The notes under the pieces are model-generated. The model was not told the DNA's origin. It searched no databases and saw only the letters and a program-made list of their open reading frames with translations. A stretch of 63,290 nt of DNA, counting the filler, from Thraustochytrium aureum (lineage: Eukaryota), in the NCBI GenBank assembly GCA_012862495.1. It is 5 parts of 3 records of this genome, joined end to end, with 100 filler letters (N's around TTAATTAATTAA, not from the genome) between each part and the next. Parts side by side here need not be neighbours in the genome. Positions count along the whole stretch, not along the records: positions 45,102 to 61,844 come from BLSG01000158.1; 4 more parts are not named here. One strand, 5' to 3'. Below are positions 37,890 through 63,290 of the stretch, piece after piece (the first letter of the stretch is position 1; the number at the start of each line of letters is the position of its first letter). The translations under genes and the position numbers were made by a program.

Positions 37890-38444
37890 GCTGCTGCTGC
37901 TGCGCGCCAGGAGCAAACGGCACTGCACTGCGCCTCGGGCCTGAGCCGGCGACCGCTCTTGGCCAAAGCGAGTAGACGTCGCCGCGCGTCTTCTCTCCTG
38001 AGGCAGGTCCCGCGCCGCCGCCCTCGCAGCTCTTCTCTTTCGGTATTGTGCTCGCGCGCTGTGTTCGCTTCGAGCCCTTTTGGCTCGTTGGGAATCGCGC
38101 CGTGCGCTCCAACTGTTGTCCAACTCGGGCCGCCAAAGGGTGAGGGCTCGCGGCCAACCAACCAACTAGTCCTGTTAAAAGGCGACGACAAGCTGATATT
38201 GCTTTTTCATCAATTGCCCCTTCTCTCCGAGCCAATTCGCCACAATCAAAAGCTGTCAGCCCTCTGGCGCAACGGAGGGAAGCAAGCCATCGGTCGCCAG
38301 GTGCCACTTTTGCTTGTGCTGCGGCGCCCGCGCATGACAATTCGCTGCGGTCTCGTCGCTGGCTCGGGTCTTTTTCGCTGTCCTTGTCGCAGCCCGGCCC
38401 CATGCAACGCGCGGTTGTTGCGTCATCACGCCCATAGGCTATGC

Positions 38445-45101: not shown

Positions 45102-45117
45102 ACTAGAGCACGCCGTT

Positions 45118-46041
45118 CTACTGGTAGGTGCGGAACGCCTTCTTGGCGCTCTCGTCGCCCGCCGTCGGGTCGGCGCGCTTGAGGACTTTGAGGAGCAAGT
45201 CTACTCGGTGCCGCATACGGCTGTGCAGGTGCGCCTTGGAGGCCTTGATGTGGTAGTGGATGTAGGCCCGGAACCCGGAGAGGAGCGTGCAGAGCTTGTC
45301 AAGCTTTGCGCCCTCAACGTGCGATTGGAAGATTTGGAACTGGACGTAGCCGACGAGATCCTCCTTGCCCGCGCGGAACTCGCGCACTTTGCCGAGGTCG
45401 CTGGGGCAATCCGTTGTGAAAGCCACAGAGGGCGCGTTGGGGATCTTGCGGTTCGTCTCGCTAAACTCTTGCAGAAAAACCTTTGCGATGGCGCGGTCGG
45501 TTTCGTCGGAAAAGTAGACCGTAAAGAACACCAGCACGCGGTCCGAGCTGGGGACCAGGATCATGCTCTCCGCCGGGCGAAAGGGAATCACCATCGGCTT
45601 GAGGGAGCTCGAGCTGCCTTTGGCAAGGGCCTCGAAGCAGCGCTTGAACGGGGCAGCCGTTAAGTTGCGCTTGATCTCGGCAAAGTTTTTCGCCACGGTC
45701 TCGGCGCTTTCGCGCTGCTTGTCGACGTCAATCTTGAACTCGGTGTCGTACCCTTTCTCCGACCCGGACGACTTGTAGGCACCATACATGCTGTCCAGGA
45801 GCGCGGAAGCGCCGAGGCCGTTGAGGTCGCGCAGGTAGGGCATAGAAAGCTGAAACTTGATCACATTCTTGGCGTCGCCGGTGACGACCATGCGGTACCG
45901 CACGTCGTCAAAGTCGGAGCAGGTGATGTCACAGGGCTCTTGCTTGGCGCCAGGGGCCAGCTTCTCCAACAGCGTGCTCTTGATGATGGGGTGCTCCGTT
46001 TCCAGGAAGATCATCCCCTTGGCACCTTGCGCGACACTCAT
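45118..46041 (-). CDS. ARPC2: Arp2/3 complex subunit 2 (p34)
   Basis: MIFLE, SDFDDVRY, KRNLTAAPF, DRV.VFF...FSDETDRAIAKVFLQEF, YIHYHIKASKAHLHSRMR. Confidence 0.93.
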   Translation of the reverse strand: MSVAQGAKGMIFLETEHPIIKSTLLEKLAPGAKQEPCDITCSDFDDVRYRMVVTGDAKNVIKFQLSMPYLRDLNGLGASALLDSMYGAYKSSGSEKGYDTEFKIDVDKQRESAETVAKNFAEIKRNLTAAPFKRCFEALAKGSSSSLKPMVIPFRPAESMILVPSSDRVLVFFTVYFSDETDRAIAKVFLQEFSETNRKIPNAPSVAFTTDCPSDLGKVREFRAGKEDLVGYVQFQIFQSHVEGAKLDKLCTLLSGFRAYIHYHIKASKAHLHSRMRHRVDLLLKVLKRADPTAGDESAKKAFRTYQ

Positions 46042-46826
46042 CGTTGATGGTTGGCGCCTCGGGGGCGTCAGCGGCAGGCAGGGGGGCCAAGCACGGAGGC
46101 AACGACCTCGGCGAACGAGTGCGCTGGGCGACGGCAACGACCGCCTGCGCGTGCGCCTGTTGGTGCTCGAGCTTCCGCGAGCGCGCTATCTAGCCGGGTA
46201 TGCACAGCAACCTGCCGGCTGGAGGCCTCGCGCCGCCGCTGCTGCTCCTGCTGCTCCTGCTGCTGCGAGGGGCTGACGAGACTGCTGCGAGGGGGAGGCA
46301 GGAAGGAAGGCAGGCAGATCCTGCTGCTGCCTCTCCTGGGTGTGCTACGAGGGGCAGAGGGACCAGGATCACTCTGTCGTGATTGTTCCGTGAGGATGTC
46401 AGAAATCCGGACGTTGGGCGTAGTGGGTGAGAGCGAACCGCCTGAAACTGATTGGTTCTTCCTTCTCTGGCCGGCGGATGGCGCGGATTTCCTGCCTTCT
46501 TTCACTCCTTCCTCCTCATTTCGTCCTTTCCTTCGCTCAGCGGAGCCTCTTTCCTTCCTGCGTTTCCTTCGCCCCCTCCTCCCTCTTCTGAAGGTTCACT
46601 CTGAAGGTTCACTCTGAAGGTTCTGAAGGTTCTGAATTCTTGAGGGCGTTTGCTGAGTCCGCCGGATAAAATAATTTGCCCCATGCGTTCATTCTGTTCG
46701 GGCCCACCGCTTGCGGCGCTGGTGGACCTCTTCAAGCCCACGCTGCGGGCCATCGCCGCGGACGACGCGCTGCGCGCAGAGCGCACACGCGCAGAGTGCA
46801 TACGTACCGAGATATCGCCTGCCCGC

Positions 46827-47405
46827 ATGCAGCCAGCGCGCGAGCCAGCGCGCGACGCGGCCGTTTTCGTAGACTCGGCCCTTGAAAGCCTCCAGGGCAG
46901 GCCCGGCGTTGCACGCGAACAACTCGCAGAGCGGCTCGCTGGAGGCGTCGCTCGCGACAACGCCGTCGCCTCAGGACAAGCTGTTCTTCGTCACGTTGTG
47001 GCCGGACGCGCGGGGGGCCGCGCGCAGGACGTCGCAAGAACGCTCGACTTGTGCCCCGTAACTCGCAGCCACGTCAGCGCGGCCTTCGAACCGAAAGCCG
47101 AAACCTTAGCTCGCTGGATCGAGACCGGCGCCTCACGGTGCGGCATCGCGGGGACACGACTCGTGACCTTTGATTGGTCGGTTCGGCTCCAAGTCGAAAG
47201 CGCCACGATGTTTGACAGCCCTCGAGAGGGCCATCAGAACAGCCTTTTGGTACTGGACCTGCGGCTCGACTGTTCAGACGGGCAAGAGAGGTCAGCAACC
47301 CTCGAGCTTGACATCGCGGAACTGGATGAAATCCTGGCAAGTCTTCACCGGGCCCTGGGAGCTTTGAGCCGTGCTGTCACCACAATCGGAGGCGCCGATG
47401 GATGA
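46827..47405 (+). CDS. COMM-domain protein (COMMD8-like)
   Basis: LVTFDWSVRLQVES...LLVLDLRL...TLELDIAELDEILASL; start uncertain. Confidence 0.7.
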   Translation: MQPAREPARDAAVFVDSALESLQGRPGVAREQLAERLAGGVARDNAVASGQAVLRHVVAGRAGGRAQDVARTLDLCPVTRSHVSAAFEPKAETLARWIETGASRCGIAGTRLVTFDWSVRLQVESATMFDSPREGHQNSLLVLDLRLDCSDGQERSATLELDIAELDEILASLHRALGALSRAVTTIGGADG

Positions 47406-48588
47406 ATGCAGGCAGCACTGACGGGCACCGTGACGTGCGAATCTCGCCCTGCTATGCGAGGGTGGAGAATGTAGCCGAGCCTCTCCTGTTGTTGCGACGA
47501 CCTGATGTCCGAGCTAATTGCTGCCCGGAGGTCTTCGTCGTTGATGTGTCTTCAGAGCTGCGCTGAGATGGTGCAACAATCTAGCGAGAACGTTCGGGCG
47601 GGCGGACTTGAGCTCTGCTGCTCGGCGCAGCGAACGGGACTTGCTCCGTGCTCCGCAGCGGCTGTCTGCATCGGGCTAAGAGGCTGCAATGCTGCCAGGC
47701 CCTATTCAGCGCGGCGGCGCTTGCGCATTCTCGTACTCTTCACGCGCTGGTTGGTATCCAAAGCACACGGCGCGTGCTGCTCCTGCTCATCACTTGCCTT
47801 GAGGATTGTAGGGGCGTGTCGAACCTCGAGGCGCTGACGCGCTGAGAGGCTCGAAGCTCCAACTCGTCGATGCGGCGGATGAGCCCTTCCCAGAATTTGC
47901 TCCTGACGAGGAAGAAGGTGTCCAAGTTGGGCAGAGCTCGACCGAAAGGCGAGTAGCACACGACTCTACAGCAATCCGTTTGCCGACTTGGTGTGGGTCT
48001 TCGAGGACGGCGGCCGCGGCCCGCGCTTTAGGGGGGGGGTTCTGTGCCCATTCGCAGACGGTTCTGCACCAGCAGTACAACTGTACAAGAGAACACATCG
48101 TATTGCAACGGCTCTCTGTGGTCGCGCCGAGCTCGGTTCTCGCAGGGTTTGTGTTGGCCGCGGCAAGGCGGTCCCTCGACCCACGACGGGGGTCATCTTG
48201 TCCAGGCTCATTCGGATTTGAACGGCTCCCCGGTGTTCTTCACCATCACCTCGGCCATTCAATCACTTTGATTGATACGCCATGGTGTTACCTACGAGAA
48301 AGTCTAAGAGTTCAGCTGCCTCCTTAGGCAGCTACTGACGGGACATCTCTGCTCGCGACGGAGGCCGCGTGCTGATCATTTGCTTGGGTTGTTACTCTAC
48401 GCGACGCTAAAAGACGGGAGGATTGCATTTTGATTGATTGATTGAAATGACAGGAAACAGTTTGGCCGTTGGAACTCGGCGAACGGCCGATGGATGCGCA
48501 ACGTCGGAGAGTCGCAGCGTCGGAGAGTCGGAGAGAGTACTTTGTGGTGTTTCAGGCAGAGCTCGCGCTCACGAAACAATGCCTTCCG

Positions 48589-48669
48589 CTCAAACAGGAC
48601 GGCAGGCATCTGAGCTCAAACAGGACGGCAGGCTCCTGAGCTCAAAAGAGACGGCAGGCTTGTGAGCTC
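48589..48669 (+). repeat. About 26-bp imperfect tandem repeat, three copies
   Basis: ctcaaacaggacggcaggc..ctgag units. Confidence 0.8.
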
Positions 48670-49134
48670 GTGATGTTTTGCCGTCCATTCTAGACCAAAC
48701 GACGGGTGACTCTCTCCTCTCAGGTTCGGGTTGTACTTGCCACGGACAACTAACTAGCTCGAGCGAGCGCGAGCCGATGGGGACATCGCGGCAAGTTGAT
48801 GATGGCTTTGTCCGTAACCGTTGAGTTGTTCGTTGAGAGTTTCAGGTTGCGAATGGAGAACGGTGTGCTACGACGAAAAAACGCCCCCCCGATGGGTTGC
48901 GCCTTCTTTTCGGTAGTCGAGTCGCAGAGGGCGATAAATCAAGCAAGGCGCCAAACAACGAAATCGCCACCGCGCTTTGATTGAACGAGATTGTGTGATT
49001 GAATGAGTGACCGTCGAGCAGACACCAAACGCTTGGATTGAACAAGCCACGAAAGCAAAACTACGAGAAGCCGACCGACGAAAACGCGTTGACGAAACGA
49101 AGACCGAGCAACACGAAGCGCGCGTGGGGGCGGG

Positions 49135-52100
49135 ATGAGGTTGTCTCGCGGAGACTTTGCGCTTGCGCTTGCCGCGTCATCGTGGGCTTCGTTTGCGAAC
49201 GCAGACTGTGCATGCAAGAATCGCAGCGACACTCGCATCGCTTTGGTTGGGTTTCAGGACCCTGCCTCCTCCGATGAGTTCAACCTGATCATGAAAGGGT
49301 TTCTGGAGGCCGGTAAAAGCCTCCGCGTCCAAGCAACTGTGCAGACCCCGACCGACTTTGAGCTGGTGGATGAATTTGCTGCAGACAAGCTGGCCGCCTT
49401 CAAGCACCACGTAGACCTAGCCATGGCCGCGGACCCGCACGGCTTGCTCGTGAGCGTGNNNNNNNNNNNNNNNNNNNNNNNNNNNNNNNNNNNNNNNNNN
49501 NNNNNNNNNNNNNNNNNNNNNNNNNNNNNNNNNNNNNNNNNNNNNNNNNNNNNNNNNNNNNNNNNNNNNNNNNNNNNNNNNNNNNNNNNNNNNNNNNNNN
49601 NNNNNNNNNNNNNNNNNNNNNNNNNNNNNNNNNNNNNNNNNNNNNNNNNNNNNNNNNNNCAAAGCACTGCCGAACAACGTGTCGGCACGCTGGTCGGCCC
49701 CGGGATCGCGGCGCGGACAAACGCAACCCGTGCCAAGGGACTTTTCCGTGGCGTCACTCACCTTGGCGTGGACGAGCGCGCCACTGGCGAGCAGGTAGGG
49801 AGCCAGGCTGGCCGCCTCGGCGCGACGTCGGCGCTCTGCTTCTTTGCAGAAGGCGGGCTGGGTTCCGAGGCAGAGCAGTGTCAAGGGTTTGTGGACGGGT
49901 TCCTCGCGACTTGTCCAGGAAATTGCCACGCCGCGACACGCAGCATGTCGAGCTTCAACCTGTTTACCCTCAAAGCAGATCTCAGCGCCGAACTCTCCAC
50001 AAGCGCTCACAACGCCACATCGCTGGTCGTGGCGCCGAACGGCCGCAGCGCGCGCGCAGCCCACCAAGTGCTCGTGGACCTGGGGCGAAGCCCGATTCAC
50101 GTAATCTCTATGTCCGCAGACGCCATTGCAGAGACCATGATGACTGATCGCGAGCTCGCCTTCAGTGTCGACCGGCAGCCGTACCTTTCAGGGTTTCTTG
50201 GCACCGTTCTCACCGTCTACGCGGCGACAACAGGGCAGAGGCCAGCCAACCCCGTTCTCAGCACCGGCCCCGTGTTCCTGACAACACCGCGCAGGCGGCC
50301 CGAAACGACTGTTGACCAGCTGGTTCTTGACATTGTCACCCACGGTCGCGGCGTGGACGGGTTTTGGCTTGACGCGAAGAAGGGCGGCGTGGAGGCAGCC
50401 CGGGACATTGGCTTGTCGTTCGAAGAGTGCGCAGTGGTAAACGCAAACTGCAATGGAAAGCCCGGCTCCGTAAGCTACCGCGCCCCAGGGTCCGAGTTCG
50501 ACCTGACGACGATGAGTTTGCAGATTCTCGAGAGCGCCAACCACGACCCCGACGGACTTGTTGTGACCATCCCGAACTGGGACGCGTTGAGCAACGCCAT
50601 CGAGACCGCCGTCAAAGACATGGGCGTCCCCACTGTGAGCGCCAACGCCGGCGGGAAGATCGCAATTCAAGTCGGGATGCTTTCCCACTTTGGCCAGGAA
50701 GAGGTCACAGCTGGGTTTAACGCCGCAGCGCACATGTTTCAAAAGAAGGGGGTAACCAAAGCGATCTTCGTCAACCACGAGAAGGGCAACTCGGCCTTGG
50801 ACGAGCGCGCCCAGGGGTTTGCCGACGGTCTCGATGCCGCCACTGGGAACTCTGGGACAGTGCGGGAGGTGCTGACGACGTTCGGCAGCCGAACCGCGTT
50901 CCAAACCAACGTGATTCCGGTTTTGCAAGGAGACCCCAATATCACCGGCTTGATGTTTGCGGGTACGTTCGATGTCGACATGGCCGTCGACGAGATTCAA
51001 AAGGGAGGTGTGCCACAGGCGATCGTGATTGGAACTTTTGACGTGCTTCCTGAAGTGATCACGTGGATCGAGAACGGCACATCGCTTCTGACGATCCAGC
51101 AGCAGCAGCAAATGCAGTTCTACGTCCCCACCATTTTGCTAGCCCTCCGTGCGCTCACCGGAGAGTTCTTCAAAGCCGACTGGTTCATGACCGGGCCAGC
51201 GATCGTCGACCAGTCCAACGTGGACCAAGTCCCTTGCCAACACGAGCTGGCGTGTCCCGCCGAGCTCGAGTACGTCAGCGGCGCCTGCCCAATGCCTCGA
51301 AGCCGGGGAGATGGGTGGTGTGACAAGGCCAACAACGTGCCAGAGTGCGGCTACGACGGCGGCGATTGCTGTGGCGAGACTTGTGTCAGCTCGAACGCGT
51401 TCTCCTGTGGCACAGACACCTTTTCGTCGGGGCTCAACAAGTTTTCGTGCATCGACCCAGACACCCTGGAGGGCCTCGAGTCTATCTGCGAGGCGACGCC
51501 AAGTGATCCCCGCTGCGTTGGTGCCAACTTTCGCGACCCCACTCTGCTCACCTTGGGTCTCGTGCTCGACATGACCGACTCGAGCGTCACCGATCAAGCC
51601 GAGTGTGTGGGTGACCACCGGGTTTGGAACTCTACGCTTGAGAGTTGCATTCTCCGCGGGGAACCACAGGCTGTGCTTGCAGCCGCGCTCCTTGCCGCGC
51701 AGCACTTCAACGACCGAGATGGCAGCCTTCTTCCAGTCCTTGGGACCGTAGGATCCTGCAACAAGAAGCTGACTCTCGTTGTGGAGGACGCAGGCTCTGG
51801 GATCGGACCGTCTATTGCGGCAACGATGCGCGTTCTGCAGAATGGGACTGACGTCATAATCGGGCCGTCGTCTTCTGACGCCATGGTCCGCGCTGCTCTG
51901 CTCTCAAGCGCGCTAGGCGGAATCCCCCACATTTCGCATGCAGCGACGTCGCGCCGGCTTGACGATGCCGCATCGTTCCCTTACTTTTCGCGCACGATTG
52001 TCCCAGAAACCGAGAATACGAAAGCAACCTGCCGGGTCTTCTCTGCGCTTGGGTTCCGCTTTGCTGCGGTGCTGTACCCCGAGACTGAAGACGGCGAGAG

Positions 52101-53913
52101 CCGTCGCGCGAATTTTGTGAACACCTGTGCGGCCCAGGGGGTGACAATCCGGCCCTTTCCATTTACTTGGGATGATCCTGCCAACTCCGCGGCCTTCGCA
52201 GGTCTCGAGGCCTTCAACGTGATTTCCCTGGTTGGCAGCTCCGCGCAGGCGCTTCAAGTGCTCCAGGCCGCGTTTGCCAGAGGACTCGTGAGCCCTGGCT
52301 CGTCGTGGTTCCTTGACAAATCCCTAGTCGCACGCATCAACGGGATGGCCTCGCATCCACCTGGGTTTCTTGATGCGGTTGCCGGCTCCGTCACGGTCAA
52401 GCCCCGCGGTGGCGCAGGCGCTCTGTACGACGCGTTTGTAGCAAAATGGTCCGCTTCTAGCGTCACCTCGTTCGCTGGCGCCCTCCCGCAAGGCGTATCG
52501 ATTGAAAGCGCATTCGAAACCACCGAATTCCTGCCCATGTCAGCCGCGTACGTTTTCGACTCGGTCGCGCTAGCCGCAGTCGCCTCGTGCCACATTTCAC
52601 CAAGAGACCCATTGGTTCGCAGCTCCTTCGGAGATCTGTTCCAGGATGCCCTGGCCAAGAGCATCGAGTTTGAAGGGCTTACTGGAAAAATAGCCATGGA
52701 TACAAACCACAACCGCAAGCAGTCCACGTCTGGGATCGAGATTCTCAGCGTGCACCGTCCAGGCGCCACTGGGCCGCCCCTTCAGCAGACAGTTGTTGGC
52801 GAGTTTGACATTGCAGGGGGCAAACTCGAGCTTTGGGGCAACCTGACGTTCACCGGCGGAGTCGCGGCGCAAGCGGTCACCGACGTCAAGATTCCTACGC
52901 AAGACTACGGCTACTCCTCCGCTTTGACGGCGGTTTCGTACGCGTTTCTCGCGATCAACCTGGGCATCTGCGGTTTTTTCTTGGTCTGGACAGTGAAGAA
53001 CAGGCGCGAGGCTGTCGTGCGCGCTGCACAAGTGCCGTTCCTCGTTATGGTTGGCGTTGGTTGCGCCGTGTCGTCGTTGGCCATTATCCCCATTGCAACC
53101 ACCGATCAGAGTGAGCCAGCTGGGCCGAACGGGGGCCACAGTGCTGCTGATGCGTCTTGTATGGCCCAGGTTTGGCTCTATACGCTCGGCTTTGTGCTAA
53201 CTTTTGGCCCTCTGTTCGCCAAGCTGTACCGCGTTCGCAAGATCTTCCTCGAGAACCAATTTGCTGTGGGGTCGTCCAAGAAAAACAAGGCCGGAGGATC
53301 GGTTCGGAGTCGGATTAGCAACACGCAGCTCATCAAGATGATCGCCAAGTTTGCGTCAATGGACTTGGTAATCGTTGCATCGTGGACGGTCATGCACCCG
53401 ATGAAATACGTTCGTCAAGTCCAGCAAGCAGACGAGTTTGGCAACCCGCTCAAGTCGGCAGGGTCCTGCGTTGGCGAGCACACCTCGATATACATGGCGC
53501 TGCTGGGGGCGTTGCACATTTCGATGCTTGCTTACGGCTCGTTGCTGTGCTACCAGACAACTGGCATTTCCACCGTCTTTGCGGAGTCCAAGTACCTGAG
53601 CGTGGCAATCTTCAGCAACCTCCAGCTCCTCCTCGTGGCCATCCCGATCCTAGTGGTGACCTCCGACAATGCTCAAGTGTCCACGTTTGTTCGAAGCGGT
53701 GTGGTGTTTCTTGATGCGGCCAGTACAGTCATCCTCGTGTTTGGGCCAAAGGTGTACTTTCACTGCTACGGAGTAAACGACTCTGGCATTGGAGCGGGTA
53801 TGGTGAAAAATTCCAAGTCCAAGAGCAACTCGGCCACGTCTGGGGTGAAGACGACGGTAATGCCAAGCTCAGCTGTGGACGTGAGCATCGCAACGAACTC
53901 AAATTCTAATTAG
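49135..53913 (+). CDS. Class C (GABA-B-like) GPCR with two type-I periplasmic sugar-binding-like domains, an LNR repeat and an ANF/Venus-flytrap domain
   Basis: Signal peptide; SBP motifs VDRQPYLSG..TGPVF and VTHG..DGFW..KKG..PDGLVVTIP..GQEE..NHEKGN.ALDERA..TGPAIV; LNR GDGWCD..NNVPECGYDGGDCC; ANF IIGPSSS, ISHAATS, FPYFSRT, FEGLTG; 7TM VVRAAQVPFL, LFAKLYRV, FAESKYL, FGPK. Confidence 0.85.
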   Translation: MRLSRGDFALALAASSWASFANADCACKNRSDTRIALVGFQDPASSDEFNLIMKGFLEAGKSLRVQATVQTPTDFELVDEFAADKLAAFKHHVDLAMAADPHGLLVSVXXXXXXXXXXXXXXXXXXXXXXXXXXXXXXXXXXXXXXXXXXXXXXXXXXXXXXXXXXXXXXXXXXXQSTAEQRVGTLVGPGIAARTNATRAKGLFRGVTHLGVDERATGEQVGSQAGRLGATSALCFFAEGGLGSEAEQCQGFVDGFLATCPGNCHAATRSMSSFNLFTLKADLSAELSTSAHNATSLVVAPNGRSARAAHQVLVDLGRSPIHVISMSADAIAETMMTDRELAFSVDRQPYLSGFLGTVLTVYAATTGQRPANPVLSTGPVFLTTPRRRPETTVDQLVLDIVTHGRGVDGFWLDAKKGGVEAARDIGLSFEECAVVNANCNGKPGSVSYRAPGSEFDLTTMSLQILESANHDPDGLVVTIPNWDALSNAIETAVKDMGVPTVSANAGGKIAIQVGMLSHFGQEEVTAGFNAAAHMFQKKGVTKAIFVNHEKGNSALDERAQGFADGLDAATGNSGTVREVLTTFGSRTAFQTNVIPVLQGDPNITGLMFAGTFDVDMAVDEIQKGGVPQAIVIGTFDVLPEVITWIENGTSLLTIQQQQQMQFYVPTILLALRALTGEFFKADWFMTGPAIVDQSNVDQVPCQHELACPAELEYVSGACPMPRSRGDGWCDKANNVPECGYDGGDCCGETCVSSNAFSCGTDTFSSGLNKFSCIDPDTLEGLESICEATPSDPRCVGANFRDPTLLTLGLVLDMTDSSVTDQAECVGDHRVWNSTLESCILRGEPQAVLAAALLAAQHFNDRDGSLLPVLGTVGSCNKKLTLVVEDAGSGIGPSIAATMRVLQNGTDVIIGPSSSDAMVRAALLSSALGGIPHISHAATSRRLDDAASFPYFSRTIVPETENTKATCRVFSALGFRFAAVLYPETEDGESRRANFVNTCAAQGVTIRPFPFTWDDPANSAAFAGLEAFNVISLVGSSAQALQVLQAAFARGLVSPGSSWFLDKSLVARINGMASHPPGFLDAVAGSVTVKPRGGAGALYDAFVAKWSASSVTSFAGALPQGVSIESAFETTEFLPMSAAYVFDSVALAAVASCHISPRDPLVRSSFGDLFQDALAKSIEFEGLTGKIAMDTNHNRKQSTSGIEILSVHRPGATGPPLQQTVVGEFDIAGGKLELWGNLTFTGGVAAQAVTDVKIPTQDYGYSSALTAVSYAFLAINLGICGFFLVWTVKNRREAVVRAAQVPFLVMVGVGCAVSSLAIIPIATTDQSEPAGPNGGHSAADASCMAQVWLYTLGFVLTFGPLFAKLYRVRKIFLENQFAVGSSKKNKAGGSVRSRISNTQLIKMIAKFASMDLVIVASWTVMHPMKYVRQVQQADEFGNPLKSAGSCVGEHTSIYMALLGALHISMLAYGSLLCYQTTGISTVFAESKYLSVAIFSNLQLLLVAIPILVVTSDNAQVSTFVRSGVVFLDAASTVILVFGPKVYFHCYGVNDSGIGAGMVKNSKSKSNSATSGVKTTVMPSSAVDVSIATNSNSN

Positions 53914-54018
53914 AAAGCAAAAAAATGAAAAAAGGTGAGGAAGACATTATTGGTTGGGCTGCAGTACAAAGCAGAGTGGCTCCACTAGTAGAGAGGCCTT
54001 GGGGCCTCGGGGCTTTTG

Positions 54019-54129
54019 AAAGTCTCAAATAAACGAAACCACAACCAAGTCGACCCAGTACGCCACAGAAGCTGCGTGCTGAACAGACCGGAAAAAGTCC
54101 CAAAATAAACGAAACCACAACCAAGTCGA
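54019..54129 (+). repeat. About 35-bp direct repeat pair
   Basis: aaataaacgaaaccacaaccaagtcga near 54027 and 54103. Confidence 0.75.
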
Positions 54130-54932
54130 GATGACGAAACGTCGTGACGATCATCTGCAGATTGATGACGAAGTGGGAGCAAACAAACACTTGGCGAAAC
54201 AGACCCCTGAAAGCGAACTTCGGCAGCAAGACCTCCTTCCTTGCCCGTGTTGGATTTGATTTGTCCAGCAGATTCGCGTTGGATTTGTCCAGTCCAGATC
54301 CGTCGTATGTCCTGGACACTGCTCCTCAAGAACTCTAAACCCGTCTCATCAACCGGTGGACCGACCGATTTCAGTGTTTTAACAATGTGGCGAGGAATAC
54401 TTTCCATTGCTCATGATGCTCGAGTCTCCTTGGGGATGTCAATTTGAAATCGCCGCGGCAAGCCTTCACTAGGGTGGCCTAGCGTCGATGATGCGAACTG
54501 GTGGATTTGCACATTTATTGGCACTCTGCACCAATCCTGACGACCGCCTCCTGAAAAGTTGAATTATTGGTCCCCTGCCCGGATTTCTTCGAATTATTGG
54601 TACTCTGCCCGAATTTCTCCTTCCTGTTGCTGGGGTTGGGTCGTTGGAAACATACATACTGTAATTCGGAACGAGACGTATGGGAACTGTCGTGGAGGCC
54701 CCAGCCTCAGCCTATGACCATCCGGGGCCGGCCTGTGAGGATATGTATGTGTCGAGGACAAGTGTTGCTGAGCCCAGTCCAAGCCCAATCAGTGCCAAAT
54801 CTTCCTTCCCTTGACTTTGGGTGTTCGTCCTGAACAAGGGACCTCTCGTTTTCAACCTCGCTGGTATGTGTATCTTGATATCCACGATTATGTCCAGACT
54901 AGGCCTATGTCAAGAGAGAAGTTTATTGTCAT

Positions 54933-57538
54933 CTATCTGCTTTCCGGAGTCGGCGCGGCGCACCTTGCGGAGCTCTGCCGGACGAGCATTCCAAGGCGAG
55001 AGTTTAGTTCCAACAGATCCATGGCGCCTCGCTTGAACAAAACCATGTTGTCCAACACGGATGCGAGCATCTTGATGCTGCAGGGCTTGGGGAGGATGCC
55101 GTTAAAGTCGGCGCCGTGGACGCGCTCCATCTCGCCCATGCTGCTGAGCGCAGCCGTAAAGGCCATGATCACAAGGCCGGGGCGCTGCTGCTGAGCTCGG
55201 ATCAGGTTTGTCGCTTCAATGCCGTCCATGTCTGTCATATTGATGTCCATCAGAACAAGGTCGACAAGCCTATTGGTGCTAGCGCAGTGTTCGACTGCGC
55301 TCGCACCGTCTTCGAGGCACACGACGTCCTTAACGCCCGCCTTGCGGAGCAGCCTTAGCATCACGGCGCAGTTGACGGCATTGTCGTCGACGACTAGGGC
55401 GCTGAGTTGCTCGACCGTGCACGTTGCGTTGACGCGACTGTGCGTCCCAAGCGTGTCTCTGCTCAACGCTGCGTCGTCCGCGATGATGCCCTCGGCCGGC
55501 ACTGTAACCGAAAATTGTTGCGCAAGCTGCGCGACGTTGATGCTGCAGCTACTGCTGCCGTCCTGGGACGACTCGTCGCTGCAAGAGGCCGTTCCCGCGC
55601 TGTCAAAGTGCTTCCAACCGGCAGTCGGCTCCAGGAAGGACTCTAGCTGTCCGTCGTCCCGGGGTGCTGTTTCAAAGGGCAATAGCGCATAAAAGGTCGT
55701 GCCTTCGCCCTCGACACTTTCCACGTGTATCNNNNNNNNNNNNNNNNNNNNGTGCCCCCCATGAGAAAAACGATCTGCCGGCATATTGCCAGCCCCAAGC
55801 CGGTCCCGCCAAATTTGCGCGTAATAGACGCGTCGGACTGCGTGAACCGCTCAAAGATTAGCTTGAGCGCGGAGGCCTTGATCCCGACCCCCGTGTCCGA
55901 AACAGAGACAAGAAACCACTGCTTGTGCGGCTTGTTCGTCGCAGCTTGCCCGTCGCCGTCCGCGCCGTGCCTGGTGCTCTTGAGGAGCTCAACGGGCTCG
56001 CTACCGCTGCGGCTGCCCGCACTCGCAGTCCATGGCCGCGAGATAGGAACTTGCACTTCGTCGGAGCGGCAGTCTGCCCGCGTCGCGCCTTGCGCGGTCG
56101 GCGGCAGCACGGCATGATTGTTCTCCACTTCGCGAGTTCGGCGCAAACCGCGCCTAGGGCCTTTAATCAGAAGCGGTTGCTCCGCGCTGGCCTTGCTGTC
56201 GACGAAAATACGCGCTTGTTTTGGCGCTCTCGCTTTCGAAACCGAGTCGTCCTCCAGGCTGCGCATATCAACCCTGTCGCCACCGTCCCCTGAGATCGAG
56301 CGGGCGTTGGGTGGTGGCGGGCTGAAGGTATGCTTGCGGGTGGCAAAGTTGTCGAGCCAATCTGCGCGTTGTGCCGCTGAGCCGATTTTCGTCAGCGAAA
56401 CCGATACCGACCCCTCCCTGGTGAATTTGACGCCGTTGCCGACTACGTTGCTCAGAAACTGAACCAGCCTCGTCGTGTCCGTGAGAACGCGGCTAGGGAT
56501 ACCCGGGCCGATGTTGAACCGGAAGTCCACGTTGGCGCACTTTGCCGTCCCTTCGGCGATGCTGAGCGACCGCTCGACAGCCTCGCGCAGGCACACTGGC
56601 TCGATTTCAAGTTCAAACTCGGCCTTCTGGTACTTTGCGAAGTCCAGAATATCGTTAATAATGTTGGCCAGGAGGCGCGCGCTCGAGAGGAGCGTTCGCA
56701 CCATGGATAGCTGGCCAGAGCTTAGCCGGGACGTCTCGAGCAGTTCGGCGAAACCGAGGATCGATTGCAGCGGCGTGCGCACCTCGTGTGACACAGTCGC
56801 GATGAAGTCTTGCCGCGTTTGTGCCAGCTGCTCGGCAGCTTCTTTAAGCACCTGCAGTCGCATGTACTTTGCGTTCATCTCCTTGAGCAGCCGCGAGGAC
56901 TCGTCCACCGCGTCCTCGAGAGCGGCCGCTTGAGCCAACAGCATGGAGAGGTCCTTTGTGTGCCTGATCAGCACGAAAACAGTTGCGATGGACACCACGG
57001 CAGTGGCGACGCATGACACGAGCAGAAGGCGAGGAACGCGGTAGAAGAACGAGATGAAGTGAAACAGGTGCGTGAATCCGCAGCACACGATGAACAGCAT
57101 AAAGCACACGCGAACGGTCTTGAACACGTTGGCGACCTCGATGCGTTTCAGAAACAGGAAGATCTGCACTGGGATCACAAAGTACGCCACCGCGATAAGA
57201 AGCTCACTCGCTATGGCAGCAGTCGACTTGGCTTCCCACTCTCCATTCTCCACCACGAGCTCCTCGAGCCCTCGCAACTCCCCCAAACCCCGCATTGCGG
57301 CCACCCGCGCCTGTGGCGGGCGGGCCCCAAGCCACAGACAGGTGCTGCGCAGTGTTGGTCCAGCCCTTCCCACGAAAGTCGTGTACCGAACTCTACGCAA
57401 CCACGCACGCAAACGCAGACACGCACGCGGCCACGCAGCCGCACAGCCAAGCCACCGCCAACAACAGCGTTCGCATTTCGGGTCTGCCGCTCTTGCGCCG
57501 CTTTCTTCTGGTCTGCCAGTGGAGAGATCATCCACCAT
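54933..57538 (-). CDS. Ethylene-receptor-like hybrid histidine kinase (3-TM EBD, HisKA, HATPase, receiver; no GAF)
   Basis: SELLIAVAYFVIP, FIVCCGFTHL, TAVVSIAT; SHEVRTPL; NGVKFT; DTGVGI; GGTGLGL; receiver VVDDN, LMDINM, PKP. Joining the flanks of the 21-N gap restores MGGTIHVES in frame. Confidence 0.9.
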
Positions 57539-58210
57539 TGGAATTTAGAAAGAGAGGTCGACTCGATTTTTTGGGCAAAACACTCGTGAAAAATGTTGGC
57601 GCCGCCTCACAGACCTTCGGGGAAGCGGGGCTGTGATGAGCGCGAAAGAGTTTTGGTCGGACCTGCCGGGAGGAACAGAGAGTCCTGCCCCCCTCCCCCC
57701 CCCAAAAAAAATCCTCCCACTGTGGTTGTACGCTGCGGCGCGTCGAGTCTCGCGTCCCAAACGCAACAGTCGATGTGTAGTACCACTCTACTTGTAAACC
57801 GACGCCGAGTCGACCAAGCCACACGGTAGGCTCATGATGATCAATCAGCATCCAGCGGCCAGTCCTTGAGCGTTGGACCTTGAGCGTCGCGTTGTGCCAA
57901 GGGAAGCTCACACCCGTCGACCCGAGCGAGGAGGAGCGAACTGTGCCCAACAACCAGCTTGCTTCAGCTCGCCGCATTAGCGCACTTGGAAAACCGAATG
58001 TGGCTGGGGCTCGTTTGGCTGGCTGGGGCTCGTTTGGCTGGCTTCGTCTGCTTCGTCAAGAGGTTGTTGGTTGGTGCAACTCTGTATTTCGATCCGCTCG
58101 CCACGGACGCTTCGTGTCAAGATCGGAAGGCCATGCTTCGTTAGACTTTTGGTTCTGCGTTCTGATTCTGGTAACTACCGGTTTGCCTGTGCGCGCAGGG
58201 CTGCCCCATT

Positions 58211-58280
58211 GCCCCGTTTCAAGCTGCTAAAGTCTTCCCCGCTGGGCCCCGTTTCAAGCTGCTAAAGTCTTCCCCGCTGG
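58211..58280 (+). repeat. Perfect 35-bp tandem duplication
   Basis: gccccgtttcaagctgctaaagtcttccccgctgg occurs twice. Confidence 0.9.
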
Positions 58281-58860
58281 TTGCTACACCACCAAAAAAC
58301 ACCATGCCATGTGGATCATCGATTGTGCAACGGGTTTTGTACTCTCTGTAAGAGTGCGTATTCCGGCGCGGTGCATGGCGACTGCTCACGCGCGTTTTCA
58401 GCGCTCATCATACTCCAGTCTGGGGCGGGCGGACGCCCTGCACGAAAACCCCGCGCACCGATCTCGATGGAACGGCAACAATACAATTGGGATATCAACC
58501 GGCTAGCAGCAATCGAGTAGAGCACGATCAACTCAAACACCGGCAGGGCTACAAGAGCTGTCAACTCGTCCAAAGTGGCTCACGAAGCGGCGTGGATGCC
58601 GCGACCAGATGAACCACTTTGGACTCGGTGATGCCGCGGTGCTCAGCCGCCGTCACCTCTACAAGCTCCAGAGCACTGGAAACCTCTTTGGAATGGCACA
58701 AAATCATTGCGTTCCCCTCCCCAAATAGTGGTTCTAGCACGGTTTGTTGAGCGCCGCTTGGTCCGGGACTGGGTGCGTTCCAGCCGGCTGGGCGTCCTGG
58801 CAATCTGTTCGATGAGGCGGGATATCCAAGTCATTCGCGTTGCGTTGTCAGCCTTCGGCG

Positions 58861-60501
58861 CTATACGTGCGCTTTGGCGTCGTGCTCATCAAAGACGGAG
58901 GCAACAGGGATTTGGGGGCTTGCGACTCTGGCCACGGCATCGCCCAGGAAGCCCTCATGTCGAGCGCCGCTGTTTCTCCGCATCAAGCAGAATGCACCGA
59001 CGACGATGCCAAAAACCACGCCACCCCCGACGGCTAGACCGATGACTGCTTCGATTCCCAACGCTTGGGTGGTGGAAGACGCAACGTCGGCGAACCCAGT
59101 GCGATGCTCTGACGGGCTCCTTGACGGGGAGGCTGATGGGCTTGGCGAGGGGCTGACGGACCCATCGTTGACTGACGGAGGACTAGCCATAGCGGGGCTC
59201 GCCGTCGGAGCGCAGGCCATTGTGGGACTGGACGTTGGAGAGTCGGTCGTCGTCGGGCTGGTTGTCGGGTGCTCGATTGCAAAAACACGCACGTGGCCTC
59301 TATTGTCCGAGTCGTCTCCTGTCGTGCCGTCGTTGAAGGGGGCCCCAATCGCGACCATGTTGCCATCTGACGACAGCGAGACAGTGAGCCCAGAGTTGTC
59401 GTTCTCCGCCTCACCCTCAATGCCTTCGTTCAGTTGCGTCCACTTGTTCGCGAGGAAACGGTACACGCGCACCTGGCCCGCCTTGTTGGCTTTACCGTTT
59501 TTCAGGGGCCACCCGATCGCGACCGTGTTGCCGTCCGACGACAGCGAGACCGAGTACCCGAACCAGTCACGAGCTGTCTCGCCGTGAATGTCGGCGCCCA
59601 CTTGCGTCCAGGCATCGGAGACAAAGCTGAAGATTCGAACATAACCCGCGTCGGTGTATGTTCCGTCGTGGCGGTGCGACCCAATCGCGACCGTGAGACC
59701 GTCCGAAGACAGCGAAACAGAGTAGCCAAACCAGTCATCGATGCCTTCGCCGTCGATGTCGGCACCCAGCTGCGTCCAGGCGTCGGTATTGAATCGGTAC
59801 ACGCGTACGTGACCCGCGCTCTCGGCTCCTCCGTCGTTCGCAATGGCCCCAATCGCAACCGTGTTGCCGTCCGACGAAAGGGATACCGACCAGCCAGACT
59901 CGTCACTAGCAGCCTCCCCGTCAATTTCGGTTCCCAACAGGTTCCAGACATTTTCAGAGAAGCGAAACACGCGCACATGGCCTCGGTAGTCTCGATTCCA
60001 TTGGGCCCCGACCGCCACCGTGTTGCCGTCCGACGACAGCGACAACGACCTCCCAAACAGATCATAGATTGCCTTGCCGTTAATATCGGTGCCGAGTTGC
60101 TGCCATGAATTTCCGTTGAAGCGGTACACGCGCACTTGGCCCGAGTTTGTGGCAGTTGCGGAGTACATCCAGGCGCCGACCGCGACTGTCCAGCCATCCG
60201 ATGATAGCGAGACAGAGTAGCCAGACTCTCCGCTGCCCGCCCTGCCGTCAATGTCAGCACCCAGCTGCGTCCAGACACCGGCTATGAACCCATACACGCG
60301 GACATGCCCTGCTTTATTGCTGTTGTTAGGCGCTCCGACCGCGACGGTGAGACCGTCCGCCGACAGAGAAATGGAGTCGCCAGACCTGTCGCCAGCAGCC
60401 TCGCCGTCAATATCCGCACCCACTTGTGCCCATGGAAGACTTTGGGCGCTTGCTCCCACTGCCAAGAGCGCGAGCGCCGCTGAAAAAGCGAGCCGAATCA
60501 T
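58861..60501 (-). CDS. Type I membrane protein with an FG-GAP-like seven-bladed beta-propeller and a Pro/Thr/Ser stalk
   Basis: Signal peptide; seven repeats of WTQLGADIDGEA..D.SG.SVSLSSDG.TVAIGA...GHVRVY; PTTSPT stalk; TM VIGLAVGGGVVFGIVVGAFCLM followed by RR. Confidence 0.85.
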   Translation of the reverse strand: MIRLAFSAALALLAVGASAQSLPWAQVGADIDGEAAGDRSGDSISLSADGLTVAVGAPNNSNKAGHVRVYGFIAGVWTQLGADIDGRAGSGESGYSVSLSSDGWTVAVGAWMYSATATNSGQVRVYRFNGNSWQQLGTDINGKAIYDLFGRSLSLSSDGNTVAVGAQWNRDYRGHVRVFRFSENVWNLLGTEIDGEAASDESGWSVSLSSDGNTVAIGAIANDGGAESAGHVRVYRFNTDAWTQLGADIDGEGIDDWFGYSVSLSSDGLTVAIGSHRHDGTYTDAGYVRIFSFVSDAWTQVGADIHGETARDWFGYSVSLSSDGNTVAIGWPLKNGKANKAGQVRVYRFLANKWTQLNEGIEGEAENDNSGLTVSLSSDGNMVAIGAPFNDGTTGDDSDNRGHVRVFAIEHPTTSPTTTDSPTSSPTMACAPTASPAMASPPSVNDGSVSPSPSPSASPSRSPSEHRTGFADVASSTTQALGIEAVIGLAVGGGVVFGIVVGAFCLMRRNSGARHEGFLGDAVARVASPQIPVASVFDEHDAKAHV

Positions 60502-61308
60502 GGCACTGCAGAGCGCTGTTCTCTCAGTGGTGCTGGTGTGGCGCCCGCCCAGGTCGTCCCTTGTCGTTCGTTGTCCGCTGATGGTGCTGCAAGGGTTGCG
60601 TGTCTGTCGCTGTATTTGTGGCCTTGCTGCAGGAGCGCAGCTTGGTCGAACGTCCTTGCTGTGACTACAAGAAGAAAAGGCCTACCTACTAACTAACTAA
60701 CAAGAGAACTGGTCGGCGTCCCGCAACGTGGTTGCCCTCCTCACCCCTGTTTCAAATGCAAAAAAGTACAAAACTAAAACGTGAAACTGCATTTCGCGCG
60801 TTGCGCTCACACAATTTGATAGTCGCGATCTTCCTCCATCCGTGCGGTTGGCACGGGGGCGTTGGTACCGACGCTGGTCCAAACTCCGTTTTCAAGCCCG
60901 CGTTTGGCGAGGAAACTGTGGTCGCTCGACGAGCAACAGCGATTGCCTTTCTCAAGAACGGTGACTCGTGCTTGAAAAAGCTGCGCGAGTTCTCCAGTGA
61001 CATGAGTCGCCGCCCGAGTCGCTGGTTGCGAGCCAGCCAAAATCTTTATAACAAAAAGTACTTACCTGGCAACCACTGGCAGTGGGAAGAGTGTAAGTAC
61101 ACAGTGTGATCATGATGGGCTGTGGCATCCGAGTTGTTGGTGGACAGCAGTGATGCCGATTTGTTACAGCTGCCCATTTCAACCAAGAGGAAACCTCGAG
61201 GTTAGCCCTCGATATTTCCTCTAGAATATACGTCGTGTACCGTCTGTCGCGTCTCGTCTCGTTGGGTCAGGTCACTGCCACCCCTCTTCCAACACGCAGC
61301 ACCAACAA

Positions 61309-61800
61309 ATGGATGCCACGTTGCGCGAGCTCGACGCCCAGCTGCGGCGTGTCCGCGGCGATGACGCCGCCTCCGGCAGGTCCGCTTCCCGGGCCAGCGA
61401 CGAGCAGCTGGAGAACATGCGCGAGCGCGTCGGCTGGCCTGATCTGCCAGCGGACTTGTGCCAGTTCTACGCACTAACCGACGGGTACGCGCCGGACGCG
61501 TACTCGCTCGCCGCCGTGCTGCCAGCCGACGAGGTGGATGCCGTGGCGCGCGTGGAGCCGGCGGTGGTGCGGTCCTTTGCCGAGTTCGTCCCAGAGCTGG
61601 AAGAAGGGCGTGGCGCCGTGGCGCTGTCGCGCGAGAACGACACGTCGATGCTCTTTGCCGTGCGCACCGACGACAGACGCGTGAGCTACTGCTGGTTAAA
61701 CCACGCGGGCGGCGCCGACGTCGAGAGGTATGACAGCTTGCAGGCGATGCTCCGCGGCTTCATGCTGGAGCAGCTCTCCCAGTTCGACCCGGTTGGCTAA
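61309..61800 (+). CDS. SMI1/KNR4 (SUKH superfamily) protein
   Basis: ASDEQLENMRERVGWPDLPADLCQFYALTDG at the N-terminus and YDSLQAML at the C-terminus. Confidence 0.65.
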   Translation: MDATLRELDAQLRRVRGDDAASGRSASRASDEQLENMRERVGWPDLPADLCQFYALTDGYAPDAYSLAAVLPADEVDAVARVEPAVVRSFAEFVPELEEGRGAVALSRENDTSMLFAVRTDDRRVSYCWLNHAGGADVERYDSLQAMLRGFMLEQLSQFDPVG

Positions 61801-61844
61801 TTATGCGCGCGCCGCGCGGATGAAACAGTTTTCCCAGGTCCAAA

Positions 61845-61944
61845 NNNNNNNNNNNNNNNNNNNNNNNNNNNNNNNNNNNNNNNNNNNNTTAATTAATTAA
61901 NNNNNNNNNNNNNNNNNNNNNNNNNNNNNNNNNNNNNNNNNNNN
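61845..61944. other. Artificial scaffold linker
   Basis: N44-TTAATTAATTAA-N44. Confidence 0.97.
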
Positions 61945-63204
61945 TGTCTTGAACGGCGACCCCGGAGCGGCGCAGCTGCTCCTGGAGGTCGGCGATTTGC
62001 ATGCGGAGTTCCGCCACAAGCTTGGAGGTCGACCCGTCCGCTTGCTCGTTGTTGGTCACGGGCTTGTTCTGGATATTCCGCGCGCGATTTGCGTACTTGA
62101 GCGTGTTGACGGTCTCCTCAAAGTTGATGTCTGCTGGCGAAACGCAGGCAATCATGACCGTGCGGCTGTTGCCGCCAAGCGAGTCTTGCAGGATCCGGGT
62201 CAGCTTGGAATCGCGGTACGGGACGTGCGCTCCGGCGGTGCGCTTCGCGTCGTCGCCGAGGGCCGAGATCACGTTGCCAAGCGCCAGGAGCCCGCGGTTG
62301 ATGTCGATGCCTTCCTTCAGCCGCTCACCTTGCGCCTTGGTCCGCTTGGCGCGCTCAGAGCCGGCGAGGTCGACCAAGTGAAACTTGGCGGTGCGCACCG
62401 TACCGCGCTCGCGGTCTTCGTTGCGGACCTCGACGGTGAAGATGGCGTGCGACCTGCTCGAGGACCGGTTCATTTTCGGTGCTTCCTGTCGCGCGGTTGC
62501 GGCAGCCCGCCGCGAGCTGGCCCAGGAGATCCGCCTCGCTTGCCACGCTGATTTGCGACAGCCCTGCAACGAAGAGGTTGCGCGACGCGTCCTCGCGAAT
62601 AGTAAGCGCGTTGTGGTGCCCCGCAGCGCCGGTCGTCGCGGGCCGCAGCAAGTCAAAGAGCTCCTCGCGGTAGATTTCGAAGAAGGAGACCGAGGCGGAG
62701 ACGGAGGCGCTGCCCGCCTTTGCCTCGCGCTGCGCTGAGATCTTGGCAAACAAGTCGGCAGCAAGCAAGGGGATGACGCTGTTTCGCTCGCTGCTCATCG
62801 TGAACGTTTTGCCTGATCCGGTCTGCCCGTACGCGAGCACGGTGGCGTTCAGCCCGTCAAAGCACCCATCGAGCAGCGGGGCCACGCAGTCTCGGTAGAG
62901 GCGGTCTGAGCTCGGCGGCGACCCAGTCAGGCCCGCCGCGTCGTCGCCGCGCTGCTGAAAAACGTAGTCAAATGTGAACCTGCGCTCCGCGGCGGTGGGC
63001 AGGGTCACGGTCTTGGCCTTTTCGTCTGCCATGATCGTCGCCGAGCTCCCCTGGGCGCGTTCATGTTCAAGAAGAGGCCGCACGTGCACTGCAACCTGTA
63101 CGGGCAGCACGCCAGGGCACCGCGTTGCTCTCGCCTCGCCCTCGCTCGTCGCCGCGCCTTCTGGCCCCGAGACGTCCTCCAGCGGGTCCCTCCTCGGCCG
63201 CCAT
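61945..63204 (-). CDS. Kinesin-4 family (KIF4/KIF21/KIF27-like) motor domain; frameshifts ~63188 and ~62475; 3' truncated
   Basis: [83 protein letters not shown]. Confidence 0.92.
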
Positions 63205-63290
63205 CCCGCAGCCGCTCGCAGCAAGCACAGGCCCGCAGCCGACCTTGCGCGGCACCAAGCCCTCACCAGCGCGGCGCCGCCGCCCGTCAC

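Follow-up and report, generated by a model that had tools for sequence, protein, structure and literature searches.

A Thraustochytrium aureum hybrid histidine kinase with an ethylene-receptor-type sensor and Glu and Cys at the positions of ETR1 D25 and K91

Introduction

According to the model set out in PMC10266040 for the plant ethylene receptor ETR1, a Cys and a His hold copper, whereas D25 polarises H69 and bridges to K91, and the resulting D25-H69-K91 triad is the current explanation in that paper for both high affinity and coupling. Among the mutants described there, ETR1-D25E has minimal copper binding in vitro, its ethylene binding in yeast is lowered yet detectable, and the plants are ethylene-insensitive, while K91A and K91M bind copper normally, retain 1% and 6% of ethylene binding, respectively, and couple poorly. 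Among the 1221 sequences surveyed in the same paper, position 25 is Asp in 93.55% and Asn in 3.67%, the natural Asn variants being argued to represent fast, low-affinity receptors; an olfactory receptor that detects organosulfur odorants by means of Cu(I) and Cys/His is also cited there. Furthermore, P110 is described in PMC6586836 as required for ETR1 signal transmission.

Outside plants, ETR homologues are described in diatoms, amoebae, Capsaspora and early fungi (PMC6324907, PMC5285503) and in Labyrinthulomycetes (PMC6944256), and AzoEtr1 of Azospirillum brasilense is reported to bind ethylene with residues 1-130 alone (PMC11819568). By the account given in PMC7700396, no SAR ETR candidate had been functionally studied at the time of that paper. 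The Agaricus proteins, as presented in PMC6682694, PMC9603746 and PMC11971883, differ in the number of transmembrane (TM) segments, and we draw no support from them. In the present study, we followed up an earlier note, made from DNA sequence alone, which had proposed an ethylene-receptor-like hybrid kinase in the genome of Thraustochytrium aureum.

Materials and Methods

The DNA analysed (hereafter the window) is a stretch of 63,290 nt from the T. aureum assembly GCA_012862495.1, which consists of five joined parts of three records with N filler between them; the kinase gene lies in the part at 45,102-61,844, which comes from BLSG01000158.1. Residue numbering throughout counts from the ATG at 57538.

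A word-indexed search with the sensor region alone passed 0 of 2217 candidates, and an exhaustive phmmer search with aa 95-240 then gave 1858 relatives. Column counts were taken over the best 150 of these 1858, which are the 50%-identity representatives nearest the query, and equivalence to ETR1 was set by the family alignment columns together with published residue numbers. The tree was a quick one, built on 83 of 151 rows and 91 columns. Among the sequencing runs X1-X4 that were consulted, X1, X2 and X4 are guessed to be RNA runs of one study, and their contigs cannot show the gene start.

Results

Gene Model and Neighboring Genes

The window DNA is 62% GC, intron-poor and eukaryotic, with many assembly gaps. 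On its minus strand, an ORF extends from 57538 into 20 N at 55732-55751, a little beyond the G2 box, and a second frame continues from 55730 to the stop at 54933, the N run being a frame break in the window sequence. Contigs of both X1 and X2 span 55485-55793 with all 20 N absent, and with the gap closed accordingly the coding length from ATG 57538 is 2586 nt, that is, 861 aa. The receiver-side (distal) part aligns with the matching part of the orthologue P0003, where the domain order is the same, and no spliced joint was seen in the run contigs over the kinase gene. The kinase gene is thus one real, intact minus-strand ORF, and a reading as a frameshifted pseudogene was rejected, since the X1 and X2 contigs close the gap in frame. 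The span of 54933..57538 originally assigned to it did mark a real gene, though one interrupted by the zero-length N run and with a likely start farther in: because the orthologues begin at about the second ATG (57295) and GC3 steps up at that point (Table 1), 57295 is likely the true start, giving 780 aa.

Coverage by X1 and X2 extends over about 54970-57475 and leaves the flanks uncovered, the flanks being covered by X3; the confinement of X1 and X2 coverage to the gene may be taken as a weak hint of expression. A scan for sigma-70 promoters found nothing and has no bearing on a eukaryote.

Several other genes in the window merit description. Tail to tail with the kinase gene lies a 1592-codon, class C GPCR-like ORF (49135-53913, plus strand) with a 201-N gap inside and an unusual layout of Peripla_BP_4 (two stretches; a bacterial-type periplasmic sugar-binding domain), LNR repeat, ANF_receptor and 7tm_3. 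The upstream neighbor (58861-60501, minus strand) encodes a secreted-type protein with an FG-GAP_2 repeat propeller, a stalk rich in Ser and Pro and, probably, a TM segment. Farther away, the product of 15428-16855 (minus strand) combines a hydrophobic N-terminal half with an RGS domain at the C-terminus, and presumably resembles 7TM-RGS proteins such as plant RGS1; 36878-37975 (plus strand) encodes a CMAS-family methyltransferase (cyclopropane fatty acid synthase-like or sphingolipid); and a kinesin motor gene at 61889-63290 (minus strand) is in two frames, with apparent duplicated sequence near the gap linker, which is likely an assembly artefact. ARPC2 is also encoded in the window and is 64% identical to that of Hondaea fermentalgiana, a thraustochytrid labyrinthulomycete, among 18 relatives, from which a labyrinthulomycete host would by itself be likely.

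Table 1. Coordinates of the kinase gene and of its features in the window (residues counted from ATG 57538)
Feature	Positions	Strand	Evidence or conservation
Hybrid histidine kinase gene, likely start to stop, 780 aa with the zero-length gap allowed for	54933..57295	-	
81 in-frame codons 5' of the likely start; probably 5' UTR, possibly N-terminal extension	57296..57538	-	Orthologues without match; GC3 0.58 versus 0.75 downstream of 57295
20-N assembly placeholder, true length zero	55732..55751	.	Omitted in bridging contigs of X1 and X2
ETR1_N ethylene-binding-type domain, three TM helices, aa 108-197	56948..57217	-	Pfam 70.3 bits; hydropathy; AF2 pLDDT 91.6
E112, D25 equivalent (Glu)	57203..57205	-	Column D129 N13 E5 S3, best 150 of 1858
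C152, extra Cys before C65	57083..57085	-	Cys in 21/150, best 150 of 1858
C153 and H157, C65/H69 equivalents, predicted Cu(I) ligands	57068..57082	-	C 148/150, H 149/150, best 150 of 1858
C176, K91 equivalent (Cys)	57011..57013	-	K101 R27 other 22, C 0/150, best 150 of 1858
K195, replacing the P110 kink proline	56954..56956	-	Pro 119/150, best 150 of 1858; 0/10 other protist-clade rows
Helical linker of about 46 residues from TM3 to DHp, no GAF/PAS	56816..56953	-	One model helix aa 169-268; heptad check
HisKA/DHp, phospho-acceptor H251 at 56786-56788	56627..56815	-	Pfam; fold match to ERS1 and GacS DHp
HATPase_c boxes N (56420-56455), G1 (55877-55903), F and G2 (55787-55813)	55787..56455	-	Pfam; motif check
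Low-complexity insert splitting HATPase_c, about 155 aa	55919-56383	-	Shorter insert in orthologues, same place
Receiver; phospho-acceptor Asp D758 at 55245-55247, Lys at 55086-55088	55056..55397	-	Pfam 1.3e-18; motifs

Domain Architecture and Structure Models

With the gap closed in frame, the receiver is in the same polypeptide as the kinase, and Pfam gives the order ETR1_N (PF25487), coil, HisKA, HATPase and receiver. The score of ETR1_N stands against a cut-off of 27 bits, and HisKA (aa 242-304), HATPase_c (in two stretches) and Response_reg also pass. The protein has the features of PF25487, namely a Cys-x3-His in TM2 (C153, H157) and three N-terminal TM helices, and by its sequence it belongs both to this family and to the hybrid histidine kinases. 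The phospho-His, G boxes and receiver Asp had been called intact, and so they are: the H-box His, the N, G1, F and G2 boxes and the receiver DD, D758, T and K are all present and match the orthologues. The ATPase insert, rich in A, R, S and P, is likely a tolerated loop, since it is shorter in the orthologues and an in-frame stretch of 78 nt within it is skipped in a second gene copy.

The sensor had also been described as connected straight to HisKA through a coil, which agrees with the absence of GAF and PAS from the kinase by Pfam, with an AF2 model that shows no GAF, and with the single model helix that links TM3 to DHp helix 1. The missing GAF was correctly reported, but it is not an oddity, being the norm among non-plant relatives. 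Among the best 150 of the 1858 relatives, GAF was found in only 4-8: in 0 of 88 in one batch and in 4 of 62 in the other (PF01590), or up to 8 with GAF_2 and GAF_3 included. The idea that its absence is unusual was therefore rejected. Direct coupling (Cys-to-His distance of at most 125 aa, against 98 aa here) is seen in 26 of the 58 with a DHp match among these best 150 of 1858.

The AF2 model was made on aa 82-310 with 89 sequences and has three TM helices (mean pLDDT 91.6, pTM 0.65). Its top fold matches are the DHp of GacS and ERS1, and the matches listed are kinase DHp or catalytic regions; a sequence search of the PDB gave no solved TM sensor, its two matches being chance ones (E 0.29 and 0.94), and the top three matches in the ESM Atlas are ETR1_N (0.87-0.89), which serves as a lead only. 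A dimer model of two aa 95-211 chains with Zn scored 0.64 versus 0.00 for the best control, with at least 92% contact agreement between runs and a partner pLDDT of at least 76. In calibration, which contained no Zn, 21 of 30 solved pairs attained the mark for a dimer, as against 0 of 23 single chains; for eukaryotes the figures were 17 of 29 pairs, with only 1 of 7 where an older solved relative was lacking, as against 0 of 30 single chains. The predicted interface brings C153 of one chain against C153 of the other and C176 against E112 of the other chain (expected error 2.2 Å), as would be expected if C176 occupies the K91 slot; C176 also lies against I115 of that chain in the model, beside the centre formed by C153 and H157. 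The fold, the dimer and the E112-C176 contact are all predictions.

Residues of the Putative Ligand Pocket

The three motifs quoted in the earlier note were recovered in the minus-strand frame at aa 111-123 (57208-57170), 149-158 (57094-57065) and 175-186 (57016-56981). E112, Y119, I122, P123, I150, C153 and H157 fall on the D/Y/I/P/I/C/H columns of the family and C176 on the K91 column (best 150 of 1858 relatives), the TM2-TM3 block aligns without gaps with three orthologues, and the H157-C176 spacing of 19 residues is that of H79-K98 in AzoEtr1. An alignment had been proposed as a check on whether the Cys and His are positional equivalents of C65 and H69, and it shows that they are. The equivalents of Y32, I35, P36 and I62, together with C65 and H69, are kept as claimed, in columns that are themselves nearly invariant (Y32 150/150, I35 148/150, P36 149/150, I62 147/150, best 150 of 1858). 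Neither of two plant-type motifs matched any of the best 150 of the 1858 relatives. A register shift that would bring another Lys or Arg into TM3 was considered and rejected, the block being gap-free and the alignment with the three closest relatives showing no other Lys or Arg between aa 171 and 191 of the kinase.

Both substitutions reported at the outset are real: the Glu at D25 is common to the three closest orthologues, and the Cys at K91 is kept in the second gene copy. The extra Cys before C65 is likewise present (C152), but it is common in the family (Table 1), and the suggestion that it marks a new metal site was rejected, as it also occurs in relatives that keep D and K. The strict set of binding residues (D25, Y32, I35, P36, I62, C65 and H69, with Y32 presumably counted among the seven) is represented here by six of its seven members, D25 being Glu, whereas all seven are found in 124 of the best 150 of 1858 relatives. 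A basic residue at K91 that would pair with D25 is replaced by C176. By this strict seven-residue test, the protein stands outside the ethylene receptors.

An acid at position 25 and a base at position 91 occur together in 126 of 134 acidic rows versus 2 of the 16 others (best 150 of 1858; Fisher p = 2e-12, which overstates independence as the rows are related), and on the strength of this co-occurrence the Glu-Cys combination breaks a conserved acid-base pair. The copper site had been called modified; D25 and K91 are indeed changed, while the first-shell copper ligands are not. Because this Cys and His are unaltered, the change sits in the second shell and the relay (the D25-K91 pair and P110) rather than in the copper ligands. 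As a separate observation, the D25 position is Asn and the K91 position Asp in P0026, P0038, P0043, P0067 and P0070, where the acid may have moved from one helix to the other.

Orthologues and Gene Copies

The best three relatives, P0001-P0003 (E 1e-24 to 1e-26, 42-45% identity by phmmer), share with this protein the architecture, the 98-residue spacing from Cys to phospho-His, the Glu and the double Cys, and retain Lys at the K91 position. P0002 is Hondaea fermentalgiana 'Histidine kinase 3' (GBG26555.1); Hondaea also has the Asp/Lys receptor P0016, and its GBG30782.1 is of the same Asp/Lys type. For P0001, the taxon id in the header of one cluster member resolves to a fungus. The four Glu proteins are mutually only 42-57% identical, yet all of them keep the Cys/His along with five more residues of the pocket, a pattern that suggests the metal site is under selection; T179, S183 and T186 are also kept across the clade. 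In the tree, a protist clade of 11 rows has an SH-aLRT of 98, with the four Glu rows unresolved within it, and two distant bacterial-side rows also have Glu at the D25 position. The proline of the P110 position is absent from this protein and from all 10 other rows of the clade. The clade also includes Tetraselmis rows, and P0004, P0005, P0007, P0006, P0013, P0016 and P0039 are direct-coupled ETR1_N kinases without P110, among them proteins of Tetraselmis (a chlorophyte) and Hondaea (a stramenopile). A profile built from three clade members found no further member (14 matches among 7998 scored), and a scan of metagenome contigs gave 39 loci with 26-48% best-segment identity and no close relative.

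Additionally, runs X1-X4 all carry a gene copy about 10% different from this kinase gene, a divergence for which we infer a paralogue rather than an allele. Among the 40 of its 47 differences that are listed (several contigs pooled), 21 codons are changed synonymously and 15 non-synonymously, and E112, C152, C153, H157 and C176 are unchanged. Loose contig ends at the kinase locus, judged by eye, hint at yet another copy of greater divergence. The codons of TM1-TM2 are matched with 0 differences by contigs of X3, and those of TM3 by contigs of X1; one other X3 contig, of depth 3.6, alters Y119, a change that could reflect either an error or a copy in decay. Taken together, the alignments indicate that the Glu at the D25 position is old and clade-wide, and that Cys176 is real, specific to this lineage and older than a duplication, because the orthologues keep Lys and the second copy keeps Cys.

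Discussion

We consider, with a probability of roughly 0.55, that this protein is a Cu-dependent, low-affinity sensor of ethylene or a similar small gas that signals by phosphorelay. The membrane hybrid kinase would act as a homodimer, as modelled, with Cu(I) likely held at C153/H157, and would likely sense ethylene or a small gas like it, binding it less tightly and releasing it faster than ETR1 of plants does. On binding, the ligand would move TM3, predicted to form a continuous helix into DHp, and this may change the autophosphorylation of H251 and the transfer to receiver D758, and the output would be carried by an HPt/response-regulator relay whose partners and sign of regulation are presumptive. 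The kept pocket residues, the intact kinase and receiver motifs, the in-frame closure of the gap and a second copy with the same residues all speak for such a sensor, as do the residual ethylene binding of ETR1-D25E, the retained copper binding of the K91 mutants and the argued low affinity of natural Asn receptors (PMC10266040), the ethylene binding of GAF-less AzoEtr1 (PMC11819568), and the predicted TM3-DHp helix and dimer. Against it, both kinds of change that impair ETR1 come together here, P110 is missing as well, the conserved acid-base pair is broken, and the X3 contig with altered Y119 leaves room for a decaying copy. An altered ligand chemistry, as first supposed, is not directly indicated, for ETR1 D25E and the non-basic K91 mutants point to weaker binding and poorer coupling.

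Could the pocket instead have been retuned, with C176, with or without C152, as an extra copper ligand or redox thiol, so as to read copper load, redox, a sulfur volatile or CO? We regard this tentatively, and as rather unlikely. A Cys at K91 occurs in 0 of the best 150 of 1858 relatives yet is kept in the second copy, a change from Lys to Cys takes more than one base change, the dimer model would place C176 at E112 and I115 of the other chain near C153/H157, and the presence of both Glu/Lys and Asp/Lys receptors in Hondaea leaves room for divergence; a precedent for such chemistry is the Cu(I) Cys/His organosulfur olfactory receptor cited in PMC10266040. Nevertheless, the three orthologues pair Lys with Glu, so the Cys appears to be a late change in one lineage, K91 is described as no copper ligand in ETR1 (PMC10266040), and C152 lies by helical phase about 100 degrees off the C153/H157 face and is found in relatives of the D/K type. 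It is also unlikely that the sensor has lost most of its coupling or no longer responds to ligand, in which case the protein would be constitutively active as a kinase or would modulate D/K-type paralogues as their partner, its TM bundle being retained for dimerisation and Cys176 having been fixed by relaxed selection after duplication. Each substitution singly impairs ETR1 (PMC10266040), several gene copies are present in the runs, and acid-less relatives are mostly base-less too (14 of 16, best 150 of 1858); but a site without function should show drift at its Cys/His, and C153, H157, Y119, I122, P123, I150, T179, S183 and T186 are kept clade-wide, with Glu in all four proteins. That the gene is a frameshifted pseudogene, or its odd residues sequence errors, is very improbable and largely refuted: the frame does break at the N run in the window, but contigs bridge the run in frame, contigs without a difference cover the codons of TM1-TM2 (X3) and TM3 (X1), and the Glu is common to the orthologues.

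A bolder scenario, in which we place little belief, is that the ETR-type receptors of Labyrinthulomycetes have diverged into two kinds, an ethylene sensor with Asp/Lys and a Glu-type branch serving some other role. In the lineage of this gene, the relay Lys would then have become a third pocket Cys, and the protein a Cu(I)-thiolate sensor of a different cue, such as a sulfur volatile from algae, copper itself or redox state. If true, this would be a case in nature where a receptor family linked until now to ethylene took on a different ligand. In an ecological reading, such protists would meet ethylene and sulfur volatiles given off by the decaying algae and plants on which they live. Whichever ligand applies, the triad positions carry natural, selected variants, namely Glu/Lys in the three orthologues, Glu/Cys in this gene and Asp/Lys in the Hondaea paralogue, and the triad model thus becomes testable with natural variants, which bears on what the ETR-like kinases of marine protists sense. 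Because the format is a minimal one of sensor, coil and kinase with an intact catalytic core, ligand effects should be directly readable as autophosphorylation; assays with 14C-ethylene, by comparison, can miss binding when the off-rate is fast, as with D25N.

The sensor-coil-kinase architecture is not new, nor are ETR-type receptors in Labyrinthulomycetes; in the main-text passages of the literature searched, neither a Glu-type labyrinthulomycete branch nor a Cys at K91 is described. Nearest to the sensor kinase proposed here are Hondaea GBG26555.1, P0001 and P0003, which are 49-50% identical to it over aa 82-310 and have the same ETR1_N-coil-HisKA-HATPase(insert)-REC order, 98-aa spacing, Glu, double Cys and lack of P110; they differ by their Lys at K91 and carry automatic annotation only. 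The Fistulifera proteins FsolaHK12-15 and the Labyrinthulomycetes homologues in PMC6944256 are of the same domain family and supergroup, and the former are described, unlike the present protein, with all conserved binding residues. Arabidopsis ETR1 (subfamily 1) shares the three-TM sensor, the equivalents of C65/H69 and of Y32, I35, P36, I62, T94 and S98, and the combination of histidine kinase and receiver, but has D25, K91, P110 and a GAF where this protein has E, C, K and none. The N-terminal disulfide Cys of ETR1 have no counterpart either, there being no Cys in aa 82-144 and Cys only upstream of the likely start, so that the two marks of plant subfamily 1 (ETR1/ERS1), a GAF after the sensor and the disulfide Cys, are both absent; moreover, ETR1 output is described as running mainly via CTR1. 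AzoEtr1, a proven receptor by the account in PMC11819568, has PAS, a separate response regulator, all seven binding residues and K98, and like the T. aureum protein it is a GAF-less kinase with 19 residues from the His to the K91 position.
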